Positions 2,503 to 18,828 of a stretch of DNA of 20,000 nucleotides are shown piece by piece. A program made the position numbers and the translations under genes. The notes below the pieces were generated by a model, which searched no databases, was not told where the DNA came from, and saw only the letters and a program-made list of their open reading frames with translations. Origin of the DNA: an uncultured virus (IMG/VR IMGVR_UViG_3300027159_000392) (lineage: Duplodnaviria; Heunggongvirae; Uroviricota; Caudoviricetes). The stretch is from IMG/VR virus record IMGVR_UViG_3300027159_000392; one strand, 5' to 3'. The first letter of the stretch is position 1; each line of letters opens with the position of its first letter.

Positions 2503-3798
2503 ATGGCGAATTTCAAGGACACGAGAATAAATCAAACCTACCAACGACTTGTACAGGTAGACGGTGCAATCTTACAAGACGGTAAAGGAAATGTAATTTC
2601 CGGATCAATGGGAGACTTAACAATAAGTGGGTCTTTAAATATCATTGGTCATACCAATGTATCTGCTTCATTAAGCAGGTTAAATTCTTTTAGTTCTTCA
2701 ATAGATGATATATATGCAACAGACGTTGATGTAACTGCAGTATCTTCTAGAGTAACTAGCTTAGAAAACTTTTCTAGTTCTTTAGATGCTACATACGCTA
2801 CAGATGAACAGCTCGATATAGTATCACAATCTCTTTCTTTAGAAACCGCTCAACTTTTAGACTTTAGTGCTTCGTTAGATGCTACATTTGCAACCGATGC
2901 TCAATTAACAACAGCAGTAGAAGCTCTTAATGCATCAACTAGTTCTTTAGCACATAAGAATGCAATATCCGGTGCTTTTTCAATTACCTCAGCTTCTTTA
3001 GCTAGCCAAATTGCTTCCTTAGACTCTGAATATGCATCTGATATACAATTAACAAATTTATCATCTTCAGCAGCTAATACCTACTTGTCTAAAGCAGGAA
3101 AAATTATTCTTAGTAGTAGTGCACAGTTATTTGAGGTATGTGATCCTAGATACGGTTTTACTCCTTATGATGCTAGATATGCTAATAGTGGTTCTTTTAC
3201 AGAATTAAGCGCATCATTACAGACAGATTATGTATTAAGTAGTTCTTTTGCAGTCTTAAGCTCTTCCTTGCAATCTGATATTACTGCATTAAATAATTAT
3301 ACGGGTTCTGCCAATATTATTCTTCAAGACCATGAACTACAGAGGTATTTACATGGTGAAAGGTTAACAAGTATAGAAACCTTTACTAGTTCAATACAAA
3401 GTACAGTAGACGGCTTATTGACTGATTATACCTCAGATGTTGAATTAACAAATTTTTCATCCTCAGCAGCTAATACGTATTTAACTAAACAGGGAAAAAT
3501 TATTATAAGTAGTAGTGTGCAGTTATTTAGTATCTGTGATCCTAGATATGGCTTTACTCCTTATGATGCTAGATATGCTAATATTAATAGTATAACAGGT
3601 TCCTTTGCTATAGAATCAAGCAGAATAGATTCATTAGAGACAGTAGTAAGCTCTTCAGCATTACTTAATTTAACTCCTAGTGCAACTTTACCGACTAATG
3701 TAAATACCGGATCATTAGCAGTAACTGGAAGTACATTAGCTTTCTATGACGGAAATAACTGGAAAGTAGTAATTACAGGTTCAACTTTACCATTATAG
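2503..3798 (+). CDS. Ser/Thr-rich repetitive protein, probable virion fibre/structural protein
   Basis: Repeated L..FSSS(I/L)D..YATD..(L/V) units, many SGS/TGS/SAS motifs, a duplicated 53-aa module, and a C-terminal GSLAV.G..LAFYDG..W as in phage fibre tips. Confidence 0.55.
   Translation: MANFKDTRINQTYQRLVQVDGAILQDGKGNVISGSMGDLTISGSLNIIGHTNVSASLSRLNSFSSSIDDIYATDVDVTAVSSRVTSLENFSSSLDATYATDEQLDIVSQSLSLETAQLLDFSASLDATFATDAQLTTAVEALNASTSSLAHKNAISGAFSITSASLASQIASLDSEYASDIQLTNLSSSAANTYLSKAGKIILSSSAQLFEVCDPRYGFTPYDARYANSGSFTELSASLQTDYVLSSSFAVLSSSLQSDITALNNYTGSANIILQDHELQRYLHGERLTSIETFTSSIQSTVDGLLTDYTSDVELTNFSSSAANTYLTKQGKIIISSSVQLFSICDPRYGFTPYDARYANINSITGSFAIESSRIDSLETVVSSSALLNLTPSATLPTNVNTGSLAVTGSTLAFYDGNNWKVVITGSTLPL
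3028..3582 (+). repeat. Two 159-bp direct repeats (3028-3186 and 3424-3582) within the 431-aa ORF
   Basis: EYASDIQLTNLSSSAANTYLSKAGKIILSSSAQLFEVCDPRYGFTPYDARYAN vs DYTSDVELTNFSSSAANTYLTKQGKIIISSSVQLFSICDPRYGFTPYDARYAN; the DNA gatcctagata.gg.tttactccttatgatgctagatatgctaat is shared. Confidence 0.95.
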
Positions 3799-3799
3799 A

Positions 3800-3831
3800 G
3801 TTGCTTATGAAATAAAAAGTTCTTATATTAT
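3800..3831 (+). promoter_or_regulatory. Bacteroidota-type (-33 TTG / -7 TAnnTT) promoter for the queD/queE unit
   Basis: GTTG at 3800-3803 and TTCTTATATT at 3820-3829; the same spacing recurs at 6219, 9415, 12126, 19570 and 19762 (1 nt shorter at 16062). Confidence 0.7.
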
Positions 3832-3845
3832 ATATATATGACTAT

Positions 3846-3872
3846 AGTGTCGTAGTACCACTTTAAAAACAC
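3846..3872 (+). ncRNA. preQ1-I-like riboswitch aptamer candidate (copy 1)
   Basis: Stem AGTG/CACT, loop TCGTAGTAC, A-rich tail TTAAAAACAC, ending just before ATG 3875; lies upstream of queD/queE. Confidence 0.7.
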
Positions 3873-3874
3873 TT

Positions 3875-4114
3875 ATGAAAAAATTAGAAAAAAAGGTTAT
3901 GCAAGAACTCTATAATAGAGAAGAAAGAGAGAATAATGCCTCTCTTGAGATCAATGGTCAGAAAGTACCAGATCCAAAATTACACCAAACAATTTCATTT
4001 ATTAAATCAGCTATCCGTATTTTAGGTTATGCTGCATTATGCTATAGTTTAGATTTAGCAGTAGGTTTACTTATATTAAGTGAAGGAATAGGAATTGTAG
4101 AAGAATTAGTTTAA
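3875..4114 (+). CDS. Small membrane protein, hypothetical (alternative start ATG 3899)
   Basis: Hydrophobic C-terminal half HQTISFIKSAIRILGY...LLILSEGIGIVEELV; first gene after the promoter and riboswitch candidate. Confidence 0.7.
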   Translation: MKKLEKKVMQELYNREERENNASLEINGQKVPDPKLHQTISFIKSAIRILGYAALCYSLDLAVGLLILSEGIGIVEELV

Positions 4115-4124
4115 AAAATAAGTT

Positions 4125-4595
4125 ATGGGAAAATTTCAATCAACAAAAGTCTTTGACGGGTTTAGTACTTGTTTTAGACAATGGAAAGCAGAAACTACTC
4201 ACTGTAGATTCTTACATGGGTACGGAGTATCTTTTAAACTATGGTTTGAAGGAGAATTAGATGATAGGAACTGGGTATGGGACTTTGGAGGCATGAAAAG
4301 AGCTAAAGCTACGATAGACGGAATGTCTCCTAAAGCATGGATGGACTATATGTTTGATCATACGGTTATAATTGCGGAAGATGATCCTCAACTTGCCGGG
4401 TACTTCAAAAAATTAGATAGAAACGGCACTATTCAGCTAAGAGTAATTGAAGCAGTAGGAGCAGAGAAATTTGCAGAGTACCTCTACAATAAAATTAATC
4501 CATTTTTGTTAGAAGAGACAGACGGCAGGGTAAAGCTAGCTAAAGTTGAATTTAGAGAACACGGTAAAAACACAGCATTATATGAGCCTAGGTAG
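4125..4595 (+). CDS. queD: 6-carboxy-5,6,7,8-tetrahydropterin synthase (QueD/PTPS family)
   Basis: HCRFLHGY (C..LHG zinc motif), WVWDFG, FDHT, GAEKFAE, V.F.EH..N.A.Y; adjacent to queE. Confidence 0.88.
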   Translation: MGKFQSTKVFDGFSTCFRQWKAETTHCRFLHGYGVSFKLWFEGELDDRNWVWDFGGMKRAKATIDGMSPKAWMDYMFDHTVIIAEDDPQLAGYFKKLDRNGTIQLRVIEAVGAEKFAEYLYNKINPFLLEETDGRVKLAKVEFREHGKNTALYEPR

Positions 4596-5361
4596 AATAG
4601 AAGATTACGATAAAAACTTACCGATCGTTGAAATATACACGGCAGTACAATCAGAAGGATCCAGAGCAGGTTATCCTACAGTGGTTATTAGGACTACTGG
4701 CTGTACTCATAGGTGTTATTTCGGAGAAGGTGGATGGTGTGATAGCTGGTATACTTCTATACATCCAGAAAAAGGAAAATACTCATTTAATGATATTATA
4801 AAAGCATATGACGATAATCCTCATATATCAGAAATGATGTTAACAGGAGGAAGTCCTTCTATGCATAAGAAACTAGTAAACGAATTAACACATTTAGCAA
4901 ATGAAAGAAATATCTTCATTACTATGGAGAATGAAGGTAGCCATTTTCTACCTACTGATTATCCTATTAATTTACTTTCAATCAGTCCGAAGTTCAGCAA
5001 TTCGGTACCTGTACTCGGTGTCGAAACTCCTGAAGGAAAGATTACAGATGAGAAAATGATAAAGCAGCATAATAAGTTTAGACTTAATTACCCTGCTATA
5101 AAAGAAAGTATTGCATACCATTCAGACTACCATTTAAAGCCTGTATGGGACGGGAAAGACGAAGGAGCATTAGAAGAGATTATGGACTGTATAGAGCAAT
5201 TGGATGCACCTAAGGATAAAGTATGGTTTATGCCTGCTGGGGATACTCGAGCAGCATTACAAAAGTCTTATCCAGTCATGTTTGATTGGGTTAGAGATAA
5301 TGGATATAGATTAACCTGGAGACCGCATATTATTGCGTTTGAAGATCAAAGAGAAGTATAA
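4582..5361 (+). CDS. queE: 7-carboxy-7-deazaguanine synthase (radical SAM); likely start ATG 4582 rather than TTG 4546
   Basis: [24 protein letters not shown]...C.......CDS.Y, LTGGSP, ENEGS, SISPK, C-terminal R.H; que context. Confidence 0.9.
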
Positions 5362-5669
5362 TGAGTTTTATAATTGGATCACCTTGCGTTAGTACTTGCG
5401 ATACAGCCTGTGTAGCAGTTTGCCCTGTAGACTGTATTCACGGTCCTATAGATATTACTGGAGCAGGAGCAGAAGTAGCAGGAATGTCCAAAGAAGACTT
5501 AATCGGTAAAAGCCTATACATAAACCCAGAAGAATGTATCGACTGTGGAGCTTGTGTTCCGGAATGCCCTGTAGAAGCAATTTTCGATAGTGAAGAAGAA
5601 GCAATCGAAGCAGGAGAAAAAGAGGCAGTTATTAACAACTATAAATTTTTCGGTTTAGATTATGAATGA
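5361..5669 (+). CDS. Dicluster (7Fe/8Fe-type) ferredoxin
   Basis: [18 protein letters not shown] and [24 protein letters not shown] motifs (FdxA-like). Confidence 0.92.
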
Positions 5670-5835
5670 AAAAGAATTTGTACAGTGGTTAAAAGGATTC
5701 ATAGAAGGAGTACACCACTATAATATTACTCCAGCTCAATTTGACCATTTAAAAGAGAAATTACAATCAGTAGGTAATACCTCTATAGCAAACTATTCTA
5801 CTGGCAACTGGGTAACGAATAATACATGGGAGTAA
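5662..5835 (+). CDS. Hypothetical protein (57 aa, [34 protein letters not shown]...); not in the ORF track
   Basis: Fills the gap between the ferredoxin and the PRTase, overlapping both ends. Confidence 0.7.
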
Positions 5836-6230
5836 AAAGAGTTTATTATAGTTGGGAGGATGTTTATAAACTCCTCGATAACATACACGCACAAACAAAA
5901 GGAAAAATAGATTACGTAACAGGAATTCCTAGAGGAGGTACTATCTTAGCAATAATGTATTCACATCGTTTTGATATTCCTTACTTTGAATATAAAAGTA
6001 ATCACTACCCTAGACTGTTAATTATAGATGATATAGCAGATAGTGGAGAGACAATATTAAAATGGAGAGAAGAAATGTTTAATCCTAAGTTTGCTACTCT
6101 ACATTACAAAACATCCTCGAAAGCAAAACCAGAATATTTCGCAAAAGAGATACCTGATGATTACGGTTGGATTGTATACCCTTGGGAAAAAGAAACTTCC
6201 AAAACTATTCAAGATTATTTGGATGTTTAA
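5826..6230 (+). CDS. Purine phosphoribosyltransferase (Gpt/XGPRT-like)
   Basis: GIPRGG, PRPP-binding LLIIDDIADSGET, and C-terminal WIVYPWE typical of Gpt-like PRTases. Confidence 0.88.
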   Translation: MGVKRVYYSWEDVYKLLDNIHAQTKGKIDYVTGIPRGGTILAIMYSHRFDIPYFEYKSNHYPRLLIIDDIADSGETILKWREEMFNPKFATLHYKTSSKAKPEYFAKEIPDDYGWIVYPWEKETSKTIQDYLDV

Positions 6231-6249
6231 AATAAATTTCTTATCTTTA
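6218..6249 (+). promoter_or_regulatory. Bacteroidota-type promoter for the folE unit
   Basis: TTTG 6218-6221, a 20-nt spacer, then TATCTTTA 6242-6249 (cf. TTTG-N19-21-TAnnTTTG). Confidence 0.7.
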
Positions 6250-6257
6250 ATTAAGAA

Positions 6258-6285
6258 TGAGTCGTAGAACCTCAGTAAAAACAAA
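6258..6285 (+). ncRNA. preQ1-I-like riboswitch aptamer candidate (copy 2)
   Basis: Stem TGAG/CTCA, loop TCGTAGAAC, tail GTAAAAACAAA; 9 nt upstream of the folE ATG. Confidence 0.7.
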
Positions 6286-6294
6286 TTATATATT

Positions 6295-7008
6295 ATGCCT
6301 AAAAAGTTTATAGAAGGAACAGAATTAGTAAGAGCCGGATTCGCTAACGGTATTTCAACTCAACTAGCGGAAAAACAAAAGACAGAAGGACCAGAAGCTA
6401 GACTTACTGATCATGAAAAGCAAGTTATTATAAAAAGAGCATCAGAAGCATATGCAAACTTTTTAACTGCATTAGGATGTGACTATAAAGACGATCCTAA
6501 CTCTGCAGATACTCCAATGAGAGTAGCTAAAGCTTATGTTAATGACTTGTGGGCTGGAAGATATAGCCCTTTAGACCGTATTACAGCATTTCCTTCTGAT
6601 GGATATGACGGCATTGTACAGGAGAGTAATATACCAGTAACGTCTATGTGTTCTCACCACCATCAAGCTATTAGAGGTACAGTAAGTATTGCTTATATAG
6701 CATCAGAAGATGGTAAGGTAGTAGGACTGTCTAAGCTTAATAGAATTGTAGAGCAATTCGGTAGAAGAGGAGCTATTCAAGAGCAGTTAACGGTAGCTAT
6801 TCATAATGCAGTAGATAAGATATGTGAAGGTAATTTAGGAGTAGCAGTTCAGGTAAATGCAACTCATGCATGTGTATCATGTAGAGGAGTAAAGCATGGA
6901 GGAGCTTCAATGCAGACTGCTAAGTTAACAGGAGCATTTTTAAATGAGGATTCAGCAAAAGCAGAGTTTTATAAGAACATAGAATTAGCAAGCATATGCA
7001 AGCATTAG
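6295..7008 (+). CDS. folE: GTP cyclohydrolase I
   Basis: DTPMRVAK, SMCSHH, VVGLSKLNRIV, IQEQLT, HACVSCRGV. Confidence 0.95.
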   Translation: MPKKFIEGTELVRAGFANGISTQLAEKQKTEGPEARLTDHEKQVIIKRASEAYANFLTALGCDYKDDPNSADTPMRVAKAYVNDLWAGRYSPLDRITAFPSDGYDGIVQESNIPVTSMCSHHHQAIRGTVSIAYIASEDGKVVGLSKLNRIVEQFGRRGAIQEQLTVAIHNAVDKICEGNLGVAVQVNATHACVSCRGVKHGGASMQTAKLTGAFLNEDSAKAEFYKNIELASICKH

Positions 7009-7974: not shown

Positions 7975-8182
7975 TTTAGAGAAACATAAAGTTACAATTG
8001 ACGGTGAGGATTACTTACCATTCGATATTGTAAAGAAAGCATATTCTGAAATTTATGAATATGATAAGAATCAAACTAAACTTGACCATGCATTAGAACT
8101 TATCGATAACTCAGTAAGAACTATGTCAACACTATTAAATACTACAAATATAGATGATAAAGATAGCACACGAAAGTCCTAA
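7967..8182 (+). CDS. Hypothetical protein
   Basis: 71-aa ORF overlapping both neighbours in the operon. Confidence 0.65.
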   Translation: MINLEKHKVTIDGEDYLPFDIVKKAYSEIYEYDKNQTKLDHALELIDNSVRTMSTLLNTTNIDDKDSTRKS

Positions 8183-8957
8183 AGAAATATTCGAAGAGGT
8201 ACAGAGATATACTGACTACGACTATGCGTTAGTACATTTATTTGAAGAAGATAAAGGGTACTTAGATCAGTTTAAAAAGGCAGCAGTAAAAGGTAGGGAG
8301 ATTATTTTAGATAACTCTATATTTGAATTAGAAGAGGCTTTCGATGCAGATAAATTTAATAAATGGGTTAACGAACTTAAACCAACTTGGTATATAGTCC
8401 CAGATGCTTTAGAAGACGCTGGTAAAACTTGCGACCAGATGGAAGACTGGATTAATAAAGGATACGGTTACGAAGGTAGTGGTAAAATAGGAGTTGTTCA
8501 AGGTAGGACATATGATGAAATTGTAGATTGCTACAACTATATGAACAAGACAGCAGATGTAGATATGATAGCTATATCATTTGATTACTCGTATTATACA
8601 CAATCAGTTCCTCATGCTAACAAGTATGTTAGCTGGATGCTAGGACGTGTTAAGCTACTGGGAGATTTACTTAGAGACGGTGTGATCAATACAGCTAAAC
8701 CTCATCACTTACTAGGATGTGGATTACCTCAAGAATTTAGTTTTTATAAGCATTCCGATTATGATTGGATATATTCACTTGATACTTCTAATCCTGTAGT
8801 TCACGGTATTAAAGGTATATCATATGGATCAGATGGGTTATGGTCTAAAGAAAGACAGAAACTTCATGAACTGATTAATTCTGAGATTGATGATATTCAG
8901 TTAGGCACAATTAAAAATAATATTCAGAAATTTAAATGGTATACTAATGGCAACTAA
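8154..8957 (+). CDS. dpdA: TGT-fold guanine transglycosylase-like protein (phage DpdA, possibly DpdA3 subfamily)
   Basis: Motifs matching the TGT barrel: ILDNS (cf. DSGG), IVPD, GVVQG (cf. GIVQG), KPHHLLGCG.P (cf. KPRYLMGVG.P), SLDTSNP (cf. FD...P); embedded in the folE/que cluster. Confidence 0.68.
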   Translation: MIKIAHESPKEIFEEVQRYTDYDYALVHLFEEDKGYLDQFKKAAVKGREIILDNSIFELEEAFDADKFNKWVNELKPTWYIVPDALEDAGKTCDQMEDWINKGYGYEGSGKIGVVQGRTYDEIVDCYNYMNKTADVDMIAISFDYSYYTQSVPHANKYVSWMLGRVKLLGDLLRDGVINTAKPHHLLGCGLPQEFSFYKHSDYDWIYSLDTSNPVVHGIKGISYGSDGLWSKERQKLHELINSEIDDIQLGTIKNNIQKFKWYTNGN

Positions 8958-9495
8958 GACTTGGATAGCATTTTTTAGTCAGACTGGAGCTGAAATAGCT
9001 GATATAGCTGAATCGTTAGGTAGATGGCCAGATCGGATTATTACAAACGATAGACCTGAGCATCTTAGAACTATAGACCCTAGGATTGAAAAACAAGGTT
9101 ACTTTACCTTTAGTAATAAACCTGATGAAGAAGAGTATGAAGACTTATTAGTATACTTTCCGGAAGCATTAATAACTCTACATGGTTGGTTAAGAATAAT
9201 GCCTCCTTCTATATGTGAAAAATATATTATAATTAACGGGCATCCAGGTTTAATAACTGAGTACCCTGAACTTAAAGGTAAAGATCCTCAGATTAGAGCT
9301 TTCGAAGGTATTAACGAAGGTAAGTACCCTATAGCAGGAACTGTTCTGCATAGAGTTACCGCTGGAGTAGATGAAGGTAAAATTATAATGGAAGAAAGAT
9401 TTAATACTTTTCAGGTGGAGCTTGAAGATTTATTTCGTATCTTAAGAGACAGAGGGTTATATATGTGGTGTAACTTTTTAAGAGAAGCTTTATGA
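8947..9495 (+). CDS. PurN-like formyltransferase (DpdN-like preQ1 formyltransferase)
   Basis: FSQTG, LHGWLRI, IINGHPGL, G.VLHRVTAGVDEG.II: catalytic N-x-H and D of the GAR transformylase fold; adjacent to the DpdA-like gene. Confidence 0.82.
   Translation: MATKTWIAFFSQTGAEIADIAESLGRWPDRIITNDRPEHLRTIDPRIEKQGYFTFSNKPDEEEYEDLLVYFPEALITLHGWLRIMPPSICEKYIIINGHPGLITEYPELKGKDPQIRAFEGINEGKYPIAGTVLHRVTAGVDEGKIIMEERFNTFQVELEDLFRILRDRGLYMWCNFLREAL
9415..9443 (+). promoter_or_regulatory. Internal promoter candidate driving kinase-nuclease-queF
   Basis: GTG at 9415 and TTCGTATCTT at 9434-9443, the same spacing as the intergenic copies. Confidence 0.45.
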
Positions 9496-10013: not shown

Positions 10014-10371
10014 ATACGGAGCAAAATTATTAAGAGTAGTTGATGGTGACACAGCAGATGTTATGATCGACTTAGGATTCAGTACTTGGGTTAAAGCAAG
10101 ACTTAGATTCAAAGGTGTAGATACCTGGGAAAAGAGAACAAGAAACTTAGAAGAAAAAGCTAAAGGTCTTCTTGCTTCTGATTTTACGAAAAAATATTTA
10201 GAGATGAATGATGGTAAGTTTGAAATACAATCTTACGGTAAAGGTAAGTACGGTAGAGTACTTGCAGAAATATTCATCAAAGGAGAAGAAAAATCTCTTA
10301 ATGATTTATTAATAGAAAACGGACACGCTTATGTTTATGAGGGTGGTAAAAAACAATTATTTAAAGGTTAA
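10006..10371 (+). CDS. Thermonuclease (SNase-like), no signal peptide
   Basis: RVVDGDT, R.R..GVDT.E, GKYGRVLA, N..L...GHA..Y.GG. Confidence 0.88.
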   Translation: MFRYGAKLLRVVDGDTADVMIDLGFSTWVKARLRFKGVDTWEKRTRNLEEKAKGLLASDFTKKYLEMNDGKFEIQSYGKGKYGRVLAEIFIKGEEKSLNDLLIENGHAYVYEGGKKQLFKG

Positions 10372-10372
10372 T

Positions 10373-11284
10373 ATGGCAGAAGTTAAAAATTATCAAGAAG
10401 TAGTAGACATTGCGTCTAAACATTTAGGAAAAGTAGGTGGAGACGGGTATAAAGATACCTACGCACCAGAGCTATTAGTTAAAGTACCTCGCTATTTGAA
10501 TAGAGAAGGCTATGGATTAACTGATAAGGACTTTGTAGGAGTAGATACTTGGAACTGTTATGAAGTATCAGCAATTACAGATAAAGGCTTACCTGTTGCA
10601 GGAATGTTAAAAATTGTATGTCCTTCAAACTCTCAATATCACGTAGAATCTAAATCTATTAAGTTATACTTAAATTCTTTTAATATGACTAGATTAGGAG
10701 CTACTTCTGTGGATTGTATTATACAGATTGAAGAGAAGGTAAAAAGTGATTTAGATAAGTTACTTGAAACAGATACAACAGTAAGTTTTTACACAGATTC
10801 AGAAGACGGTAAAGCATTATCTTTTGAAGGTTATCAAGATTTAGCTGAGATTGCAGATTTAGATCAAATAGACTTCACTGCTTTCTCTTCAGATGCTTCT
10901 CAATTAGAAATAGAAACTGTATCAGAAGAGGCTAAAGAAGTAAAGTTAAGATCTAACCTATTAAGATCTAATTGTAGAGTAACTAATCAACCAGACTGGG
11001 GAGATGTCTTTATTAGAATGAAAGGAAAGAATATTCCTTCTCCTGAATCAGTAGCGAAGTATATTGTATCTCATAGAACTGTAAGTCACTTCCATGAAGA
11101 GATTTGTGAAATGGTATTTAAACATTTAACAGATGCATATCAACCAGAAGATTTAATGGTATCTTGTTTATATACTAGAAGAGGAGGATTAGATATTAAC
11201 CCTATTAGAGCTACTCATTCAAGGTTTATTCCTGATTTTTTCACTAATACTGATTACAGAATAGAAAAAACTTTAAGACAGTAA
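10373..11284 (+). CDS. queF: NADPH-dependent preQ0 reductase, bimodular type; likely start ATG 10373
   Basis: D.WN.YEVS, VESKSIKLYLNSFN, LLRSNCRVTNQPDWG, FHEEICE, YTRRGGLDINP. Confidence 0.93.
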   Translation: MAEVKNYQEVVDIASKHLGKVGGDGYKDTYAPELLVKVPRYLNREGYGLTDKDFVGVDTWNCYEVSAITDKGLPVAGMLKIVCPSNSQYHVESKSIKLYLNSFNMTRLGATSVDCIIQIEEKVKSDLDKLLETDTTVSFYTDSEDGKALSFEGYQDLAEIADLDQIDFTAFSSDASQLEIETVSEEAKEVKLRSNLLRSNCRVTNQPDWGDVFIRMKGKNIPSPESVAKYIVSHRTVSHFHEEICEMVFKHLTDAYQPEDLMVSCLYTRRGGLDINPIRATHSRFIPDFFTNTDYRIEKTLRQ

Positions 11285-12124: not shown

Positions 12125-12156
12125 GTTGCCTCCCTGTATAATTTTTCTTATATTTA
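12125..12156 (+). promoter_or_regulatory. Bacteroidota-type promoter for the GIY-YIG/polA unit
   Basis: GTTG 12125-12128 and TTCTTATATTTA 12145-12156. Confidence 0.7.
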
Positions 12157-12184: not shown

Positions 12185-12619
12185 ATGAACAATATTAAAT
12201 ATTGGGGTAAAAAAGGATTTGTTAAAGTTGCTGACTTATTTGTTAGCGATAGATTAAAGCAGGGTGTAGATGTCAGCTTTAATTTAGATAAAGACGATTA
12301 TAAAAAACAACCTGGTGTATATTTAGTAGTCTCTGAAGAAGGTGAGATTCTTAAAATTGGTCAATCAGCTAATGTTTTTCATCGAATCAATACACAGTAT
12401 AAATGTATATCTAATTCAGGGAATGATAGAATTAGAGATGAGATTAAAAGGAAATATAAGAAGGTCTTCTTCTATGTTTTAAAAACTCCTAAGCAACAGT
12501 ATACTTTATTGGATTATTCTTTCTATATTAATTATCAGAAAGGCTTAGAAGAAGCTATGCTTCAAGATTACTATAAACAGATAGGAGATACTCCGGTTCT
12601 TAACTTACAACGAAATTAA
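12185..12619 (+). CDS. GIY-YIG-like nuclease-domain protein
   Basis: PGVYLV......ILKIGQS....RI..Y plus a C-terminal LE..(M)L......P.LN, matching GIY-YIG motif order. Confidence 0.6.
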   Translation: MNNIKYWGKKGFVKVADLFVSDRLKQGVDVSFNLDKDDYKKQPGVYLVVSEEGEILKIGQSANVFHRINTQYKCISNSGNDRIRDEIKRKYKKVFFYVLKTPKQQYTLLDYSFYINYQKGLEEAMLQDYYKQIGDTPVLNLQRN

Positions 12620-15624: not shown

Positions 15625-16044
15625 ATGAGTACATTAAGAAATGTAATATATGAGCGTAATCCGTTCGACATCTTAGTCAGGAACTTCCTGCAAACAGCTA
15701 ACAGGTATCAACCTTTAGCAGATTCCAAATTACCCCACCCAGTAGATATTTACGAAAGAGACAACGGTCTAGGACTAGACATTGCTTGTACCGGAATTTC
15801 TAAGGATGATATCCAAATTCTCGTTGAGGGTAATATAATCAGAGTAAATTACGATAAACCAAAAGAAGATGACTTAGGCGAATATATCCATAGAGGTATT
15901 GCTAAAAGATCATTTAACTTAGGTTGGAAAATAGATAGTCAGTTTAATTTAGGCAAAGCAACAGCTGAGTTTAAAAATGGACTATTGCAAGTTATTATCC
16001 CTTTTGCTAAAGGATCAGAGCCAAGAACTTTGAAAATTAGCTAA
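15625..16044 (+). CDS. Small heat-shock protein (Hsp20/IbpA family)
   Basis: P.DIY, IA..G..K.DI, YIHRGIAKRSF, A.FKNGLL.V.IP. Confidence 0.92.
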   Translation: MSTLRNVIYERNPFDILVRNFLQTANRYQPLADSKLPHPVDIYERDNGLGLDIACTGISKDDIQILVEGNIIRVNYDKPKEDDLGEYIHRGIAKRSFNLGWKIDSQFNLGKATAEFKNGLLQVIIPFAKGSEPRTLKIS

Positions 16045-16060
16045 ATAAACCAGCTCTGGG

Positions 16061-16091
16061 TTTGTTCTTCCAATTTTTATTCTTATATTAA
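16061..16091 (+). promoter_or_regulatory. Bacteroidota-type promoter for the groES-groEL-nadE unit
   Basis: TTTG 16061-16064 and TTCTTATATT 16080-16089. Confidence 0.62.
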
Positions 16092-16112
16092 TATAAATAA
16101 ACAAAGTTACAT

Positions 16113-16421
16113 ATGTCAAAACAGTTATTACCAACAAATGATAGGATTCTCCTCAAACCAATAGACGAAGGAGAACAAACTTACGGAAATATAGTTATCC
16201 CCGATATGGGTAAAGAGAAGCCTGAAATGGGTGAAGTACTTGCCGTCGGTCCTGGAAGACAGTCCGAATTAGATCCAAGTAAAATTATTAGTGTTAGATC
16301 CTGCAAAGTAGGAGATGTTGTACTAGTTCCTAAAATCGGTACATTACGTATTGATTTCGAAGGAGATGAGTACTACGTAGCGCAAGATAGAGAAATTTTA
16401 GCAGTTATTAAAGAAGCATAA
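16113..16421 (+). CDS. groES: Co-chaperonin GroES
   Basis: LLPTNDRIL, GNIVIPD..KEKP..GEVLAVGPG, KVGD.VL, EILAV. Confidence 0.95.
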   Translation: MSKQLLPTNDRILLKPIDEGEQTYGNIVIPDMGKEKPEMGEVLAVGPGRQSELDPSKIISVRSCKVGDVVLVPKIGTLRIDFEGDEYYVAQDREILAVIKEA

Positions 16422-16423
16422 GC

Positions 16424-18079
16424 ATGAGCAAAGAATTAGAATTTAACCACAAAGCTAGAGTAGGACTTTCAGAAGGTATCGAAAAATTAGCAAAGACCGT
16501 TGTGTGTACATTAGGACCAGCAGGTAGAAATGTTATTATAGAACAACAACAGGGTAACCCTATATCAACCAAAGACGGTGTAACAGTAGCTAAGTCTATT
16601 GAACTTAAAGACCCGTTACAAAATGTAGGTGCACAGTTAGTTAAACAAGCATCAATTAAAACAGCAGAAGAAGCTGGTGATGGAACTACTACGTCTACGT
16701 TACTAGCAAGAGAAATATTCCAAAAAGGTTTAGGTACCATTGGTGATCATACTGCAGTGCAGGTAAAGAAAGGAATTGAACAAGCTACTAAAGTAGCTGT
16801 AGAGTATTTAGAATCAGTAAGTAAAGATATAACGGACGAAGGACAGCTAAAGCAAGTCGCTACTATCTCTGCCAATAACGATACAGAAGTTGGTGAATTA
16901 ATTTCTACTGCTATGGAAAAAGTAGGACAGGATGGTGTAGTTGCAATCGAAGAGTCAAAGACTGGGGAAACATATTTAGAAACAGTTGAAGGAATGCAAT
17001 TCAACAGAGGTTATAAGTCTCCATACTTCGTTACAGACAACAATACCATGACTGCTGTCCTTCGTGATCCGTTTATACTTATTACCGATAAAAGACTAAA
17101 TCAAGTCAAGGAGTTACTTCCTGTCTTAGAAGCAGTCTCTCAACAAAATAAGTCGCTATTAGTAATAGCTGACGATATCGATGGAGAGGCGTTATCTACT
17201 ATGGTAGTTAATAAGATGAGAGGTATCCTTCCCGTAGCAGCTGTAAAAGCACCAGACTTTGGAGATAGGAAAAAAGCAACTCTAGAAGATATCGCTATCT
17301 TAACCGGAGGTACAGTAATTTCATCAGAGAAAGGTATGAGATTAGATAAATTTAAACCTGAATGGCTAGGTAAAGCAGTTAAGGCTACTGTATCTAAAGA
17401 TACTTGTACTATTATTGATGCGAAAGGAGCTGAAGATAGAATCGAAGAGAGAGTTCAAGAGATTAGAACTCAAATCGATGAATCGAATTCACCTTTTGAG
17501 AAAGAAAACCTTCAAGATAGATTAGGTAAACTTATAGGAGGAGTTGCTATAGTTCATGTAGGTGGACATACAGAAATAGAAATGAAAGAGAAGAAAGATC
17601 GAGTAGATGATGCTCTTCACGCCACTAAGGCAGCTCTAGAGGAAGGAATTCTACCTGGAGGAGGAGTAGCACTACTTAATGCAGCAACTCTACTTAGAGA
17701 ATATAAAGATAAAGGTAAGTTTAAAAAGCTATCTTCAAGTGAACAAGTAGGTATTCAAATATTACTTGAATCAATTGAAAGACCTTTCTATCAGATACTC
17801 TACAATGCTGGTTATTCAGAAAAAGAAATAGAGGATATCAAAACGAAAATTGACCTTAAAAAGAAAGATCAATGGTACGGTTATAATTCAAGAGCAGAGG
17901 ACTTTGCTAATATGTTTAAAGAAGGTATTATCGATCCAACTAAAGTTACTAGACTAGCATTAGAGAATGCAGTATCTGTAGCCGGAACGATGTTAATTAC
18001 TGAAGCAGTAGTATCGATAGATAAGACTGTAGATTCTAAAACACCAGTAGATCCAGCTCAACAAATGTTATTAGGATAA
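16424..18079 (+). CDS. groEL: Chaperonin GroEL
   Basis: [69 protein letters not shown]; lacks the GGM tail. Confidence 0.97.
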
Positions 18080-18828
18080 TGAAATATACTTTTATTACAA
18101 ATTGGTTACGTGATTACAGTAAGGAGGCAAATGATAAAACCTTTGTTATTGGAGTAAGCGGCGGAATAGACTCCGCCGTTACTTCTACCTTATGTGCAGA
18201 AACTGGGGCACTGACTTATGTAGTCTCTCTTCCAATTGAACAAAACAAAGAAGAGCTTAGTAGAGCAGAATCTCACATTGAATGGCTTTGTAATAAGTAT
18301 GAGAATGTAATTCCTTTACAGTTTAATTTAGACGAGGTTTTTTGGGCTTTCAAGAACGTATTTGAGAAAGAGGATAAGTTAGCATTAGCTAATTCTAGAT
18401 CAAGACTAAGAATGACTACTTTATATCACGCTGCTGCAATGGTCAACGGATTAGTAGTAGGAACTGGTAATAAAGTAGAAGACTTCGGAATTGGGTTCTA
18501 TACTAAATATGGAGACGGAGGAGTTGATATTAGTCCAATAGCAGATTTAATGAAATCTGAAGTAAAAGAAGCTGCTTGTGAATTAGGAATTCTCTTAGAG
18601 ATTATTGACGCTGCCCCAACAGATGGATTATGGGGAGACGATCGAACAGACGAAGATCAAATAGGATGTACATACGATGAACTCGAATGGGCTATGACTT
18701 TTGGAGGTGATAAGAGAAAACTTACTAAAAGGCAAAAAGAAGTACTAAAAATCTTTTATAGCTTCCAGTATAGAAATAATCATAAGATGGTACCTATACC
18801 AATTTGTCCAAATACTAAAGATGCTTAA
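18079..18828 (+). CDS. nadE: NH3-dependent NAD+ synthetase
   Basis: GVSGGIDSAV, N..SRLRM..LY, GTGNKVE, GFYTKYGDGGVDISPIADL.KSEV, PTDGLW...TDEDQIG..Y.EL. Confidence 0.93.
   Translation: MKYTFITNWLRDYSKEANDKTFVIGVSGGIDSAVTSTLCAETGALTYVVSLPIEQNKEELSRAESHIEWLCNKYENVIPLQFNLDEVFWAFKNVFEKEDKLALANSRSRLRMTTLYHAAAMVNGLVVGTGNKVEDFGIGFYTKYGDGGVDISPIADLMKSEVKEAACELGILLEIIDAAPTDGLWGDDRTDEDQIGCTYDELEWAMTFGGDKRKLTKRQKEVLKIFYSFQYRNNHKMVPIPICPNTKDA

Follow-up and report, generated by a model that had tools for sequence, protein, structure and literature searches.

Candidate preQ1-I-like leader elements of 25 bases at the 7-deazaguanine genes of an uncultured phage

Two 25-base leader elements resembling class I preQ1 (preQ1-I) riboswitches were analysed in 20,000 nucleotides (nt) of DNA from an uncultured Caudoviricetes virus (IMG/VR record IMGVR_UViG_3300027159_000392). 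This whole stretch, referred to as the window, is the reverse strand of positions 8066-28065 of a 40.5-kb virus record estimated to be 25% complete, and every gene of interest in it lies on the + strand. Element 1 heads a unit consisting of a small open reading frame (ORF), queD, queE and a ferredoxin gene, and element 2 heads folE. A shared motif, a covarying stem, restriction to folE, queD and queE leaders and a base-for-base match to the core of a published aptamer were observed, and we infer a pseudoknot, a ligand and an effect on translation. The elements are probably preQ1- or preQ0-sensing translational off-switches and would represent a shortened variant of type II preQ1-I; what the sequences offer is strong resemblance to preQ1-I in the right gene context rather than established membership or function.

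The two elements and their conservation

The elements were located as follows.

3846..3870, + strand: element 1, with AGTG (3846-3849), loop TCGTAGTAC (3850-3858), CACT (3859-3862) and tail TTAAAAAC (3863-3870); ATG at 3875
6258..6282, + strand: element 2, with TGAG (6258-6261), loop TCGTAGAAC (6262-6270), CTCA (6271-6274) and tail GTAAAAAC (6275-6282); ATG at 6295

Eight of the nine loop bases are common to both, and each tail is A-rich and ends in C. Between element 1 and element 2 the stems differ by compensatory swaps, A-U to U-A at pair 1 and U-A to A-U at pair 3, and the last loop base (3858 in element 1, 6270 in element 2) is the candidate specificity C. The first-pass annotation of this DNA had proposed a stem, loop and A-rich tail shared by the queD/queE and folE leaders, with two swapped stem pairs, eight loop bases retained and the final loop C at these two positions, and all of this was recovered where it had been placed. 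The loop 9-mer alone occurred at chance level (10 matches at one mismatch versus 10.2 expected), and the full pattern TCGTAGNAC-N3-6-DTAAAAAC gave 2 matches in the 40.5-kb record and 0 in the reversed control. With covariance model R1, built from related copies, element 1 scored 46.4 bits and element 2 scored 43.1 bits, the next best of the 15 listed window matches reaching 8.9.

The published aptamer to which the elements were compared is the type II preQ1-I aptamer of Thermoanaerobacter tengcongensis (Tte), printed in PMC10639078 as CUGGGUCGCAGUAACCCCAGUUAACAAAACAAGGG, i.e. CUGGG-UCGCAGUAAC-CCCAG-UUAACAAAAC-AAGG; class I aptamers have a stem, P1, of 5 bp (PMC10639078). Element 1 aligns to it as AGUG / UCGUAGUAC / CACU / UUAAAAAC and is identical at 16 of 17 unpaired positions after removal of one A of loop L2 and two bases of loop L3. 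The phage loop thus has one L2 A fewer and carries U for C at position 4, and the tail equals Tte L3 plus C30 minus two bases. The pocket described in PMC11625349 comprises the specificity base C15 preceded by A, U6, a G5-C16 floor, a C7+.G11-C30 ceiling and L3 adenines in the P1 minor groove, and what defines type II there is an AC preceding the 3' strand of P1. For each of the pocket residues named, the phage motif has a counterpart that is invariant or nearly so, and the earlier expectation that the bases contacting the ligand in preQ1-I would be present and conserved was borne out.

Related leaders were collected from IMG/VR with only the loop and tail fixed (TCGTAGNAC-N5-TAAAAAC) and no stem criterion, which gave at least 129 matches in 128 loci. 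Among the 129 matches listed, the loop was flanked by 6 pairs in 2, 4 in 94, 3 in 5, 2 in 1, 1 in 5 and 0 in 22; a stem of at least 4 pairs was therefore present in 96, for a chance expectation of about 2% with four pairs. For the 28 listed matches with 0-2 pairs the surrounding sequence is unrelated and mostly GC-rich, and they provide an internal background. An ATG followed within 30 nt in 97 of the 101 listed matches with at least 3 pairs, and the remaining 4 resemble chance matches. The stem-bearing matches listed represent 58 distinct leaders. A Pfam scan of 81 of 126 downstream ORFs, corresponding to 45 of these 58, gave the following arrangement.

7 leaders: followed by FolE
20 leaders: followed by a short ORF or two and then QueD, in most cases with QueE behind it; one with an intervening thioredoxin
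3 leaders: followed by QueD directly
2 leaders: followed by QueE directly, the proteins being 64-67% identical to the window QueE
13 leaders: followed, in the available DNA, by only a short ORF without Pfam match

Among the matches listed, a downstream gene could be identified for 32 leaders, all of which lead to folE, queD or queE, and no gene of an unrelated pathway was seen behind the motif among the scanned leaders. When the loci were instead chosen by protein homology, with no motif imposed, model R1 placed the element directly upstream of folE in 56 of the 80 best FolE-homologue loci and within 900 nt upstream in 24 of the 80 best QueD-homologue loci.

In two near-complete genomes of 176.6 kb and 156.1 kb exactly 2 matches each were found, about 2.3 kb apart in the 7-deazaguanine region, the same arrangement as in the window. 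Flavobacterium phage immuto 2-6A (160 kb) had 1 match, before folE only; an unrelated 190-kb phage had 0, and Cellulophaga phage phiST had neither the motif nor queF. It had been predicted that the motif would recur upstream of homologous genes and would be missing from unrelated ones: folE, queD and queE leaders of related phages carry it, and it stood before no unrelated gene in the whole phage genomes examined.

Among 185,579 bacterial and archaeal species (one genome each), the strict pattern gave no stem-bearing match except on one phage-like contig of 5.9 kb. Six matches were obtained in all, 2 on this contig and 4 without a stem (three Lysobacter, one Terriglobia). On the contig (L216 and L217), which is filed under a Verrucomicrobiales metagenome-assembled genome, both elements are present with phage-type leaders at a spacing of about 2.3 kb; it is probably phage DNA that was binned into a bacterial genome. 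The Lysobacter stretches (L213, L215 and L218, 1501-1524 in each) read GCG-TCGCAGAAC-CCC-TATAAAAAC-AGGG, a preQ1-like loop and tail wording with no flanking stem, and the Rfam PreQ1 model gave no match there. Bacteroidota hosts may carry a looser version of the motif.

Alignment A1 comprised 58 distinct sequences preselected for four of four stem pairs, in which pair 1 was AU in 35, UA in 12 and GC in 11, pair 2 GC in 57 and AU in 1, pair 3 UA in 43 and AU in 15, and the closing pair GC in all 58. Both sides had changed in three of the four P1 pairs, with six stem types across 88 distinct leaders, and stem covariation as anticipated by the first-pass annotation was therefore found among related leaders. 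The loop consensus of the 88 is U(C/U)(G/A)NAGNAC, with the variants TTGAAGCAC, TCGGAGCAC, TCGAAGAAC and TCACAG(C/T)AC; position 4 varies freely between U, A, G and C. Loop C2 is conserved except for U in 2 variants, and the loop G and the tail-ending C are invariant. In A1 the loop-opening U (T8) is invariant, as is the AC before the 3' strand of P1, which recurred in all motif-bearing folE leaders inspected without a filter. The tail of the 88 leaders consists of 0-3 bases, 3-7 A's and a C, and the distance from this C to the ATG is 2-13 nt, most often 6.

At the level of DNA, the 4-bp inverted repeat could be a transcription-factor operator beside a promoter, and both elements do lie 10-16 nt 3' of a promoter-like box. 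The half-sites vary with complementarity kept, over six stem types, and an asymmetric loop and a one-sided A-rich tail are conserved with them; together these are the signature of a folded single strand and not of a palindromic protein site, and a DNA operator is considered highly improbable.

As an RNA, the hairpin taken by itself is marginally stable (-1.5 to -3.9 kcal/mol, z-scores -0.7 to +0.6, no better than shuffles), a weak stem alone being what is expected of a ligand-dependent fold. Between the tail and the ATG neither leader contains a sequence like the Shine-Dalgarno (SD) site, in agreement with the first-pass annotation, and no terminator-like site was found on the + strand over 3600-6500. 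In element 1 the 3' stem strand CACU (3859-3862) recurs at 3870-3873, immediately 5' of the ATG, and the centroid fold pairs GUGU (3847-3850) with ACAC (3869-3872), with P1 not formed. A CAC after the tail is present in most queD-type leaders and not in folE-type leaders. The CACU repeat of element 1 could provide an alternative ligand-free pairing or a part of P2, the pairing between loop and tail.

Metatranscriptome contigs from four RNA runs of four studies cover both elements. For element 1 these include a contig spanning 3846-4062, starting at the first stem base (X15 record 1), and one spanning 3799-4014 (X16 record 9); for element 2 they include 6197-6330, with zero differences (X16 record 12), and 6173-6316 (X18 record 26). 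Because such contigs are without start or strand information and the libraries may hold DNA, they neither map a start site nor show transcription.

Gene context and promoter-like boxes

The genes relevant to the pathway were assigned as listed.

3875..4114, + strand: small ORF of 79 amino acids (aa) opening the first unit, without Pfam or PHROG match; its ATG lies 4 nt past the tail C of element 1
4125..4595, + strand: queD, 6-pyruvoyl-tetrahydropterin synthase family (PF01242, E 1.6e-13)
4546..5361, + strand: queE, radical SAM (PF04055 at 24.4 bits, under the Pfam cut-off)
5361-5669, + strand: ferredoxin, first unit
5662-5835, + strand: 57-aa ORF, first unit
5826-6230, + strand: phosphoribosyltransferase-domain protein, end of the first unit
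6295..7008, + strand: folE, GTP cyclohydrolase I, step one of the pathway (PF01227, E 2.4e-42); its ATG lies 12 nt past the tail C of element 2
8154-8957, + strand: DpdA-type DNA guanine transglycosylase, 74% identical to immuto gp206
8947-9495, + strand: DpdN-like formyltransferase, 51% identical to immuto gp204
10331..11284, + strand: queF, the reductase converting preQ0 to preQ1 (PF14819 and PF14489)

In related phages, 20 leaders have ORFs of 61-107 aa without Pfam match in the position of the small ORF. The window QueE is 64-67% identical to the proteins of two of the related leaders (L046 and L078), and the matching immuto gene is annotated as 7-carboxy-7-deazaguanine synthase. The longest queE ORF begins with a TTG that overlaps the end of queD (4546-4590); as homology to relatives starts at residue 15, this listed start is probably too early and the true start later. 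The name DpdN for the immuto gp204-type protein is taken from bioRxiv 10.1101/2023.04.13.536721, which also describes immuto DNA in which formyl-dPreQ1 replaces dG. With queF, dpdA and a dpdN-like gene in the phage, the candidate ligand would be made by the phage itself. No clear copy of queC was seen among the window genes in the Pfam and PHROG annotation.

Elsewhere in the window, positions 1-44 hold the 3' part of a tRNA gene truncated by the window edge (Rfam tRNA, 29.1 bits, cut-off 29), and upstream of the 7-deazaguanine genes lie a weak sulfotransferase-like ORF (61-708) and a carbamoyltransferase (705-2363; PF16861/PF02543). Consecutive Hsp20, GroES and GroEL homologues occupy 15625-18079 and are followed by an NAD-synthase-family protein (18079-18828) with a faint QueC-like PHROG match.

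A promoter motif had been noted before each element, and a promoter-like decamer was indeed found in both leaders.

3820..3829, + strand: promoter-like decamer TTCTTATATT, 16 nt 5' of element 1
6238..6247, + strand: promoter-like decamer TTCTTATCTT, 10 nt 5' of element 2

The decamer stands 33-57 nt 5' of four + strand start codons, namely those of the que unit, folE (as TTCTTATCTT), the ORF at 12185 and groES. At the last two, TTCTTATATT occurs at 12145-12154 (ORF 12185) and 16080-16089 (groES, 16113) without a hairpin, and the leader is about 20 nt shorter. Box and hairpin are therefore separable, the hairpin being the part specific to the 7-deazaguanine genes. Overall counts of a degenerate decamer pattern were at chance level; the decamer is probably a phage or Bacteroidota-type promoter box, and TATATT-type boxes precede the motif in related leaders. 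Promoter-to-stem distances across relatives were considered as evidence and dropped, being too noisy in AT-rich spacers.

Proposed mechanism and alternative explanations

As preQ1/preQ0-sensing switches, the elements would be very small cis-acting RNA sensors at the 5' ends of mRNAs. Once the 7-deazaguanine base has accumulated in free form, as preQ1 or as its precursor preQ0, it would pair with the last loop C at 3858 or 6270 and stack between the closing G-C of the stem and the loop-G/tail-C pair, and the A-rich tail would dock in the minor groove of the stem to complete an H-type pseudoknot. Once folded, the knot would mask the initiation region and reduce the translation of both folE and the queD-queE unit, placing the first three steps that supply the base written into phage DNA under feedback control. 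In all leaders the tail and the 3' strand of P1 are no more than about 25 nt away from the ATG, so a ligand-locked pseudoknot is predicted to occupy the initiation region, and hiding it would matter because the ATG follows so closely on the tail C and Bacteroidota ribosomes favour unstructured leaders over an SD. Bacteroidota mRNAs are described as lacking an SD, initiation being tuned by leader structure and upstream bases (Flavobacterium; PMC6847099).

Several observations weigh against this reading. Since A1 was preselected, its 100% pairing holds by construction and only the diversity of pair types counts as evidence; in two leaders from real contexts (L086 and L157) the outer pair is mismatched. 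P1 has 4 pairs and not the 5 of class I, the flanking bases being unpaired. Behind P2 stand an invariant G and an invariant C, and because these never vary the loop-G/tail-C pair is beyond the reach of covariation; no convincing pairing was seen for the bases after the tail C. The SD portion within P2, a feature of translational preQ1-I, is absent, as is any SD between tail and ATG. Close relatives without the element make up 24 of the 80 folE leaders and 56 of the 80 queD loci (in the latter a relaxed pattern was also negative), and of 5 records with an element-free folE leader, 4 still encode queF. Finally, the Rfam PreQ1 model (RF00522; 45 positions, cut-off 39 bits) gave no match at E <= 10 on the window, on 141-nt slices, on 40-nt slices or on the 40.5-kb record. 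The Infernal search with this model that the first-pass annotation had suggested was thus negative, and of the preQ1-I-like identity given there the comparative predictions and the ligand-contact bases held and detection by the Rfam model failed. Nor did the window, short slices of it or the immuto element match any Rfam riboswitch family.

Covariation in P2, sought by comparing loop position 4 with the nucleotides that follow the tail C, was set aside, there being too few variants, no pattern and no matching loop changes. A correlation between motif and queF was likewise rejected as not clean, with queF in all 4 of the 4 motif-bearing records searched and in 4 of the 5 with a motif-free folE leader. 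Several of the 24 element-free folE leaders keep the TATATT box and have the ATG directly after it, and on one contig with an element-free folE leader (L304) the motif sits before queD instead. The element is gene-specific yet optional, and dispensable in that many close relatives do without it, most of the five checked retaining queF.

A protein of the phage or the host might bind the same hairpin as a translational or stability operator that co-regulates both 7-deazaguanine units, with loop and tail as the recognition surface. A small hairpin with a conserved loop at the initiation region is classic phage translational operator anatomy. The strictly conserved loop and the location right at the initiation region conform to this, and a P2 pairing without covariation and an element to which the Rfam PreQ1 model is blind would be accounted for. 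On such an account, the match to Tte at 16 of 17 loop and tail positions, including all named ligand contacts and found solely on genes of the preQ0 pathway, would be coincidence. No candidate RNA-binding protein was identified, and the small ORF after element 1 is not an obligatory cis partner because folE leaders do not have it, nor do five leaders in which queD or queE comes next. We regard a protein operator as unlikely.

A further alternative is a structured leader, pseudoknot or hairpin, that acts independently of any ligand by setting translation efficiency or mRNA stability and is inherited with the genes, in the manner of the widespread Bacteroidota DUF805 and DUF805b RNAs (RF03081 and RF02914). 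These also are small hairpin leaders with an ...CACUUAAAAAAC-type tail shortly before Bacteroidota start codons, and element 1 matches DUF805 RNA weakly (14.4 bits, E = 2) through a shared GUG...CACUuaAAAAAC. That score is far under the DUF805 cut-off of 51.1, and membership of DUF805 or of DUF805b (cut-off 35.6) was rejected; in 5 phage records neither family gave a match over its cut-off, and the que elements were not among the weak matches. The motif is moreover confined to folE, queD and queE, and other genes behind the same promoter-like decamer are without it; a ligand-independent leader is considered improbable.

Comparison with known riboswitches

Full-text literature searching found no account of preQ1-type elements among the 7-deazaguanine genes of a phage; it stopped short of the class I alignments of McCown et al. 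2014 and of preprint supplements, which may bear on priority. The literature search also turned up no phage DNA-modification pathway under riboswitch control, as the first-pass annotation had supposed, and the text of bioRxiv 10.1101/2023.04.13.536721 contains neither 'riboswitch' nor a word starting with 'regulat'. A possible preQ1 riboswitch in the que cluster of Streptococcus phage Dp-1 was discarded, Rfam at gathering threshold finding none in the first 5 kb.

Were the elements to function as proposed, phages would be metering the supply of the 7-deazaguanine bases that stand in for G in their DNA; according to bioRxiv 10.1101/2023.04.13.536721, formyl-dPreQ1 is present in relatives of this phage. 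They would furnish a widespread natural example of a riboswitch without an SD, in uncultivated marine and Baltic-type Flavobacterium phages, where riboswitches in SD-less mRNAs are named as an open challenge in a review of preQ1 riboswitches (PMC11625349). They would also be a natural minimal aptamer, under the 34 nt of class I, of use for structural and engineering work, and standard Rfam scans miss the phage variant. We put at about even chances the more far-reaching proposal that the elements form an aptamer class of their own, miniature, phage-borne and, at about 25 nt, the smallest among natural riboswitches. Such a class, either derived from preQ1-I or convergent on it, would respond to the phage's own DNA-hypermodification precursor (preQ1, preQ0 or formyl-preQ1) by shutting down SD-independent translation in Bacteroidota; it would be the first riboswitch over a viral DNA-modification pathway and the first preQ1-type platform without an SD.

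Riboswitches are reported to be rare in phages (2017 survey, PMC5473149; PMC9004378). Those described in these sources, c-di-GMP-I in C. difficile prophages and glutamine in cyanophages and Melnitz-like phages, resemble the present elements as phage-borne metabolite-sensing leaders; they differ in belonging to classes detectable by standard models and, as described there, in exerting no control over a DNA-modification pathway.

Among preQ1-I riboswitches, the type III representative of E. coli (PMC10622847, as described in PMC11625349) is close in being the smallest and most stringent class I model, with an AC specificity motif, 1:1 ligand binding and action as a translational switch. In type III, UU follows the 5' strand of P1 and an AAGG SD is buried by Watson-Crick pairing (PMC11625349), whereas the phage loop starts with UC and no SD is present.

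The closest likeness in parts is to type II (Tte and B. subtilis queC; RF00522). Shared with it are a hairpin with an A-rich 3' tail, a loop reading UCG.AG...AC, a G-C closing P1, a tail-ending C that could pair with the loop G, and association with preQ0/preQ1 biosynthesis genes; the position at the translation start is that of the translational Tte switch. In Tte itself only two of the four P2 steps are canonical (PMC11625349). The phage element differs from type II in a P1 of 4 rather than 5 pairs, a length of 25 rather than 34 nt, an L2 one base and an L3 two bases shorter, no SD/anti-SD pairing in P2, no RF00522 match at E <= 10, and its occurrence in Bacteroidota phages. Base C9 of Tte, which we take to be the anti-SD base, corresponds by position to the freely varying loop position 4, and freedom to vary there fits the lack of an SD, where an anti-SD base has no role. 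A tail that has to cross the groove of a shorter helix would be expected to call for both changes at once, P1 losing one pair and L3 two bases.

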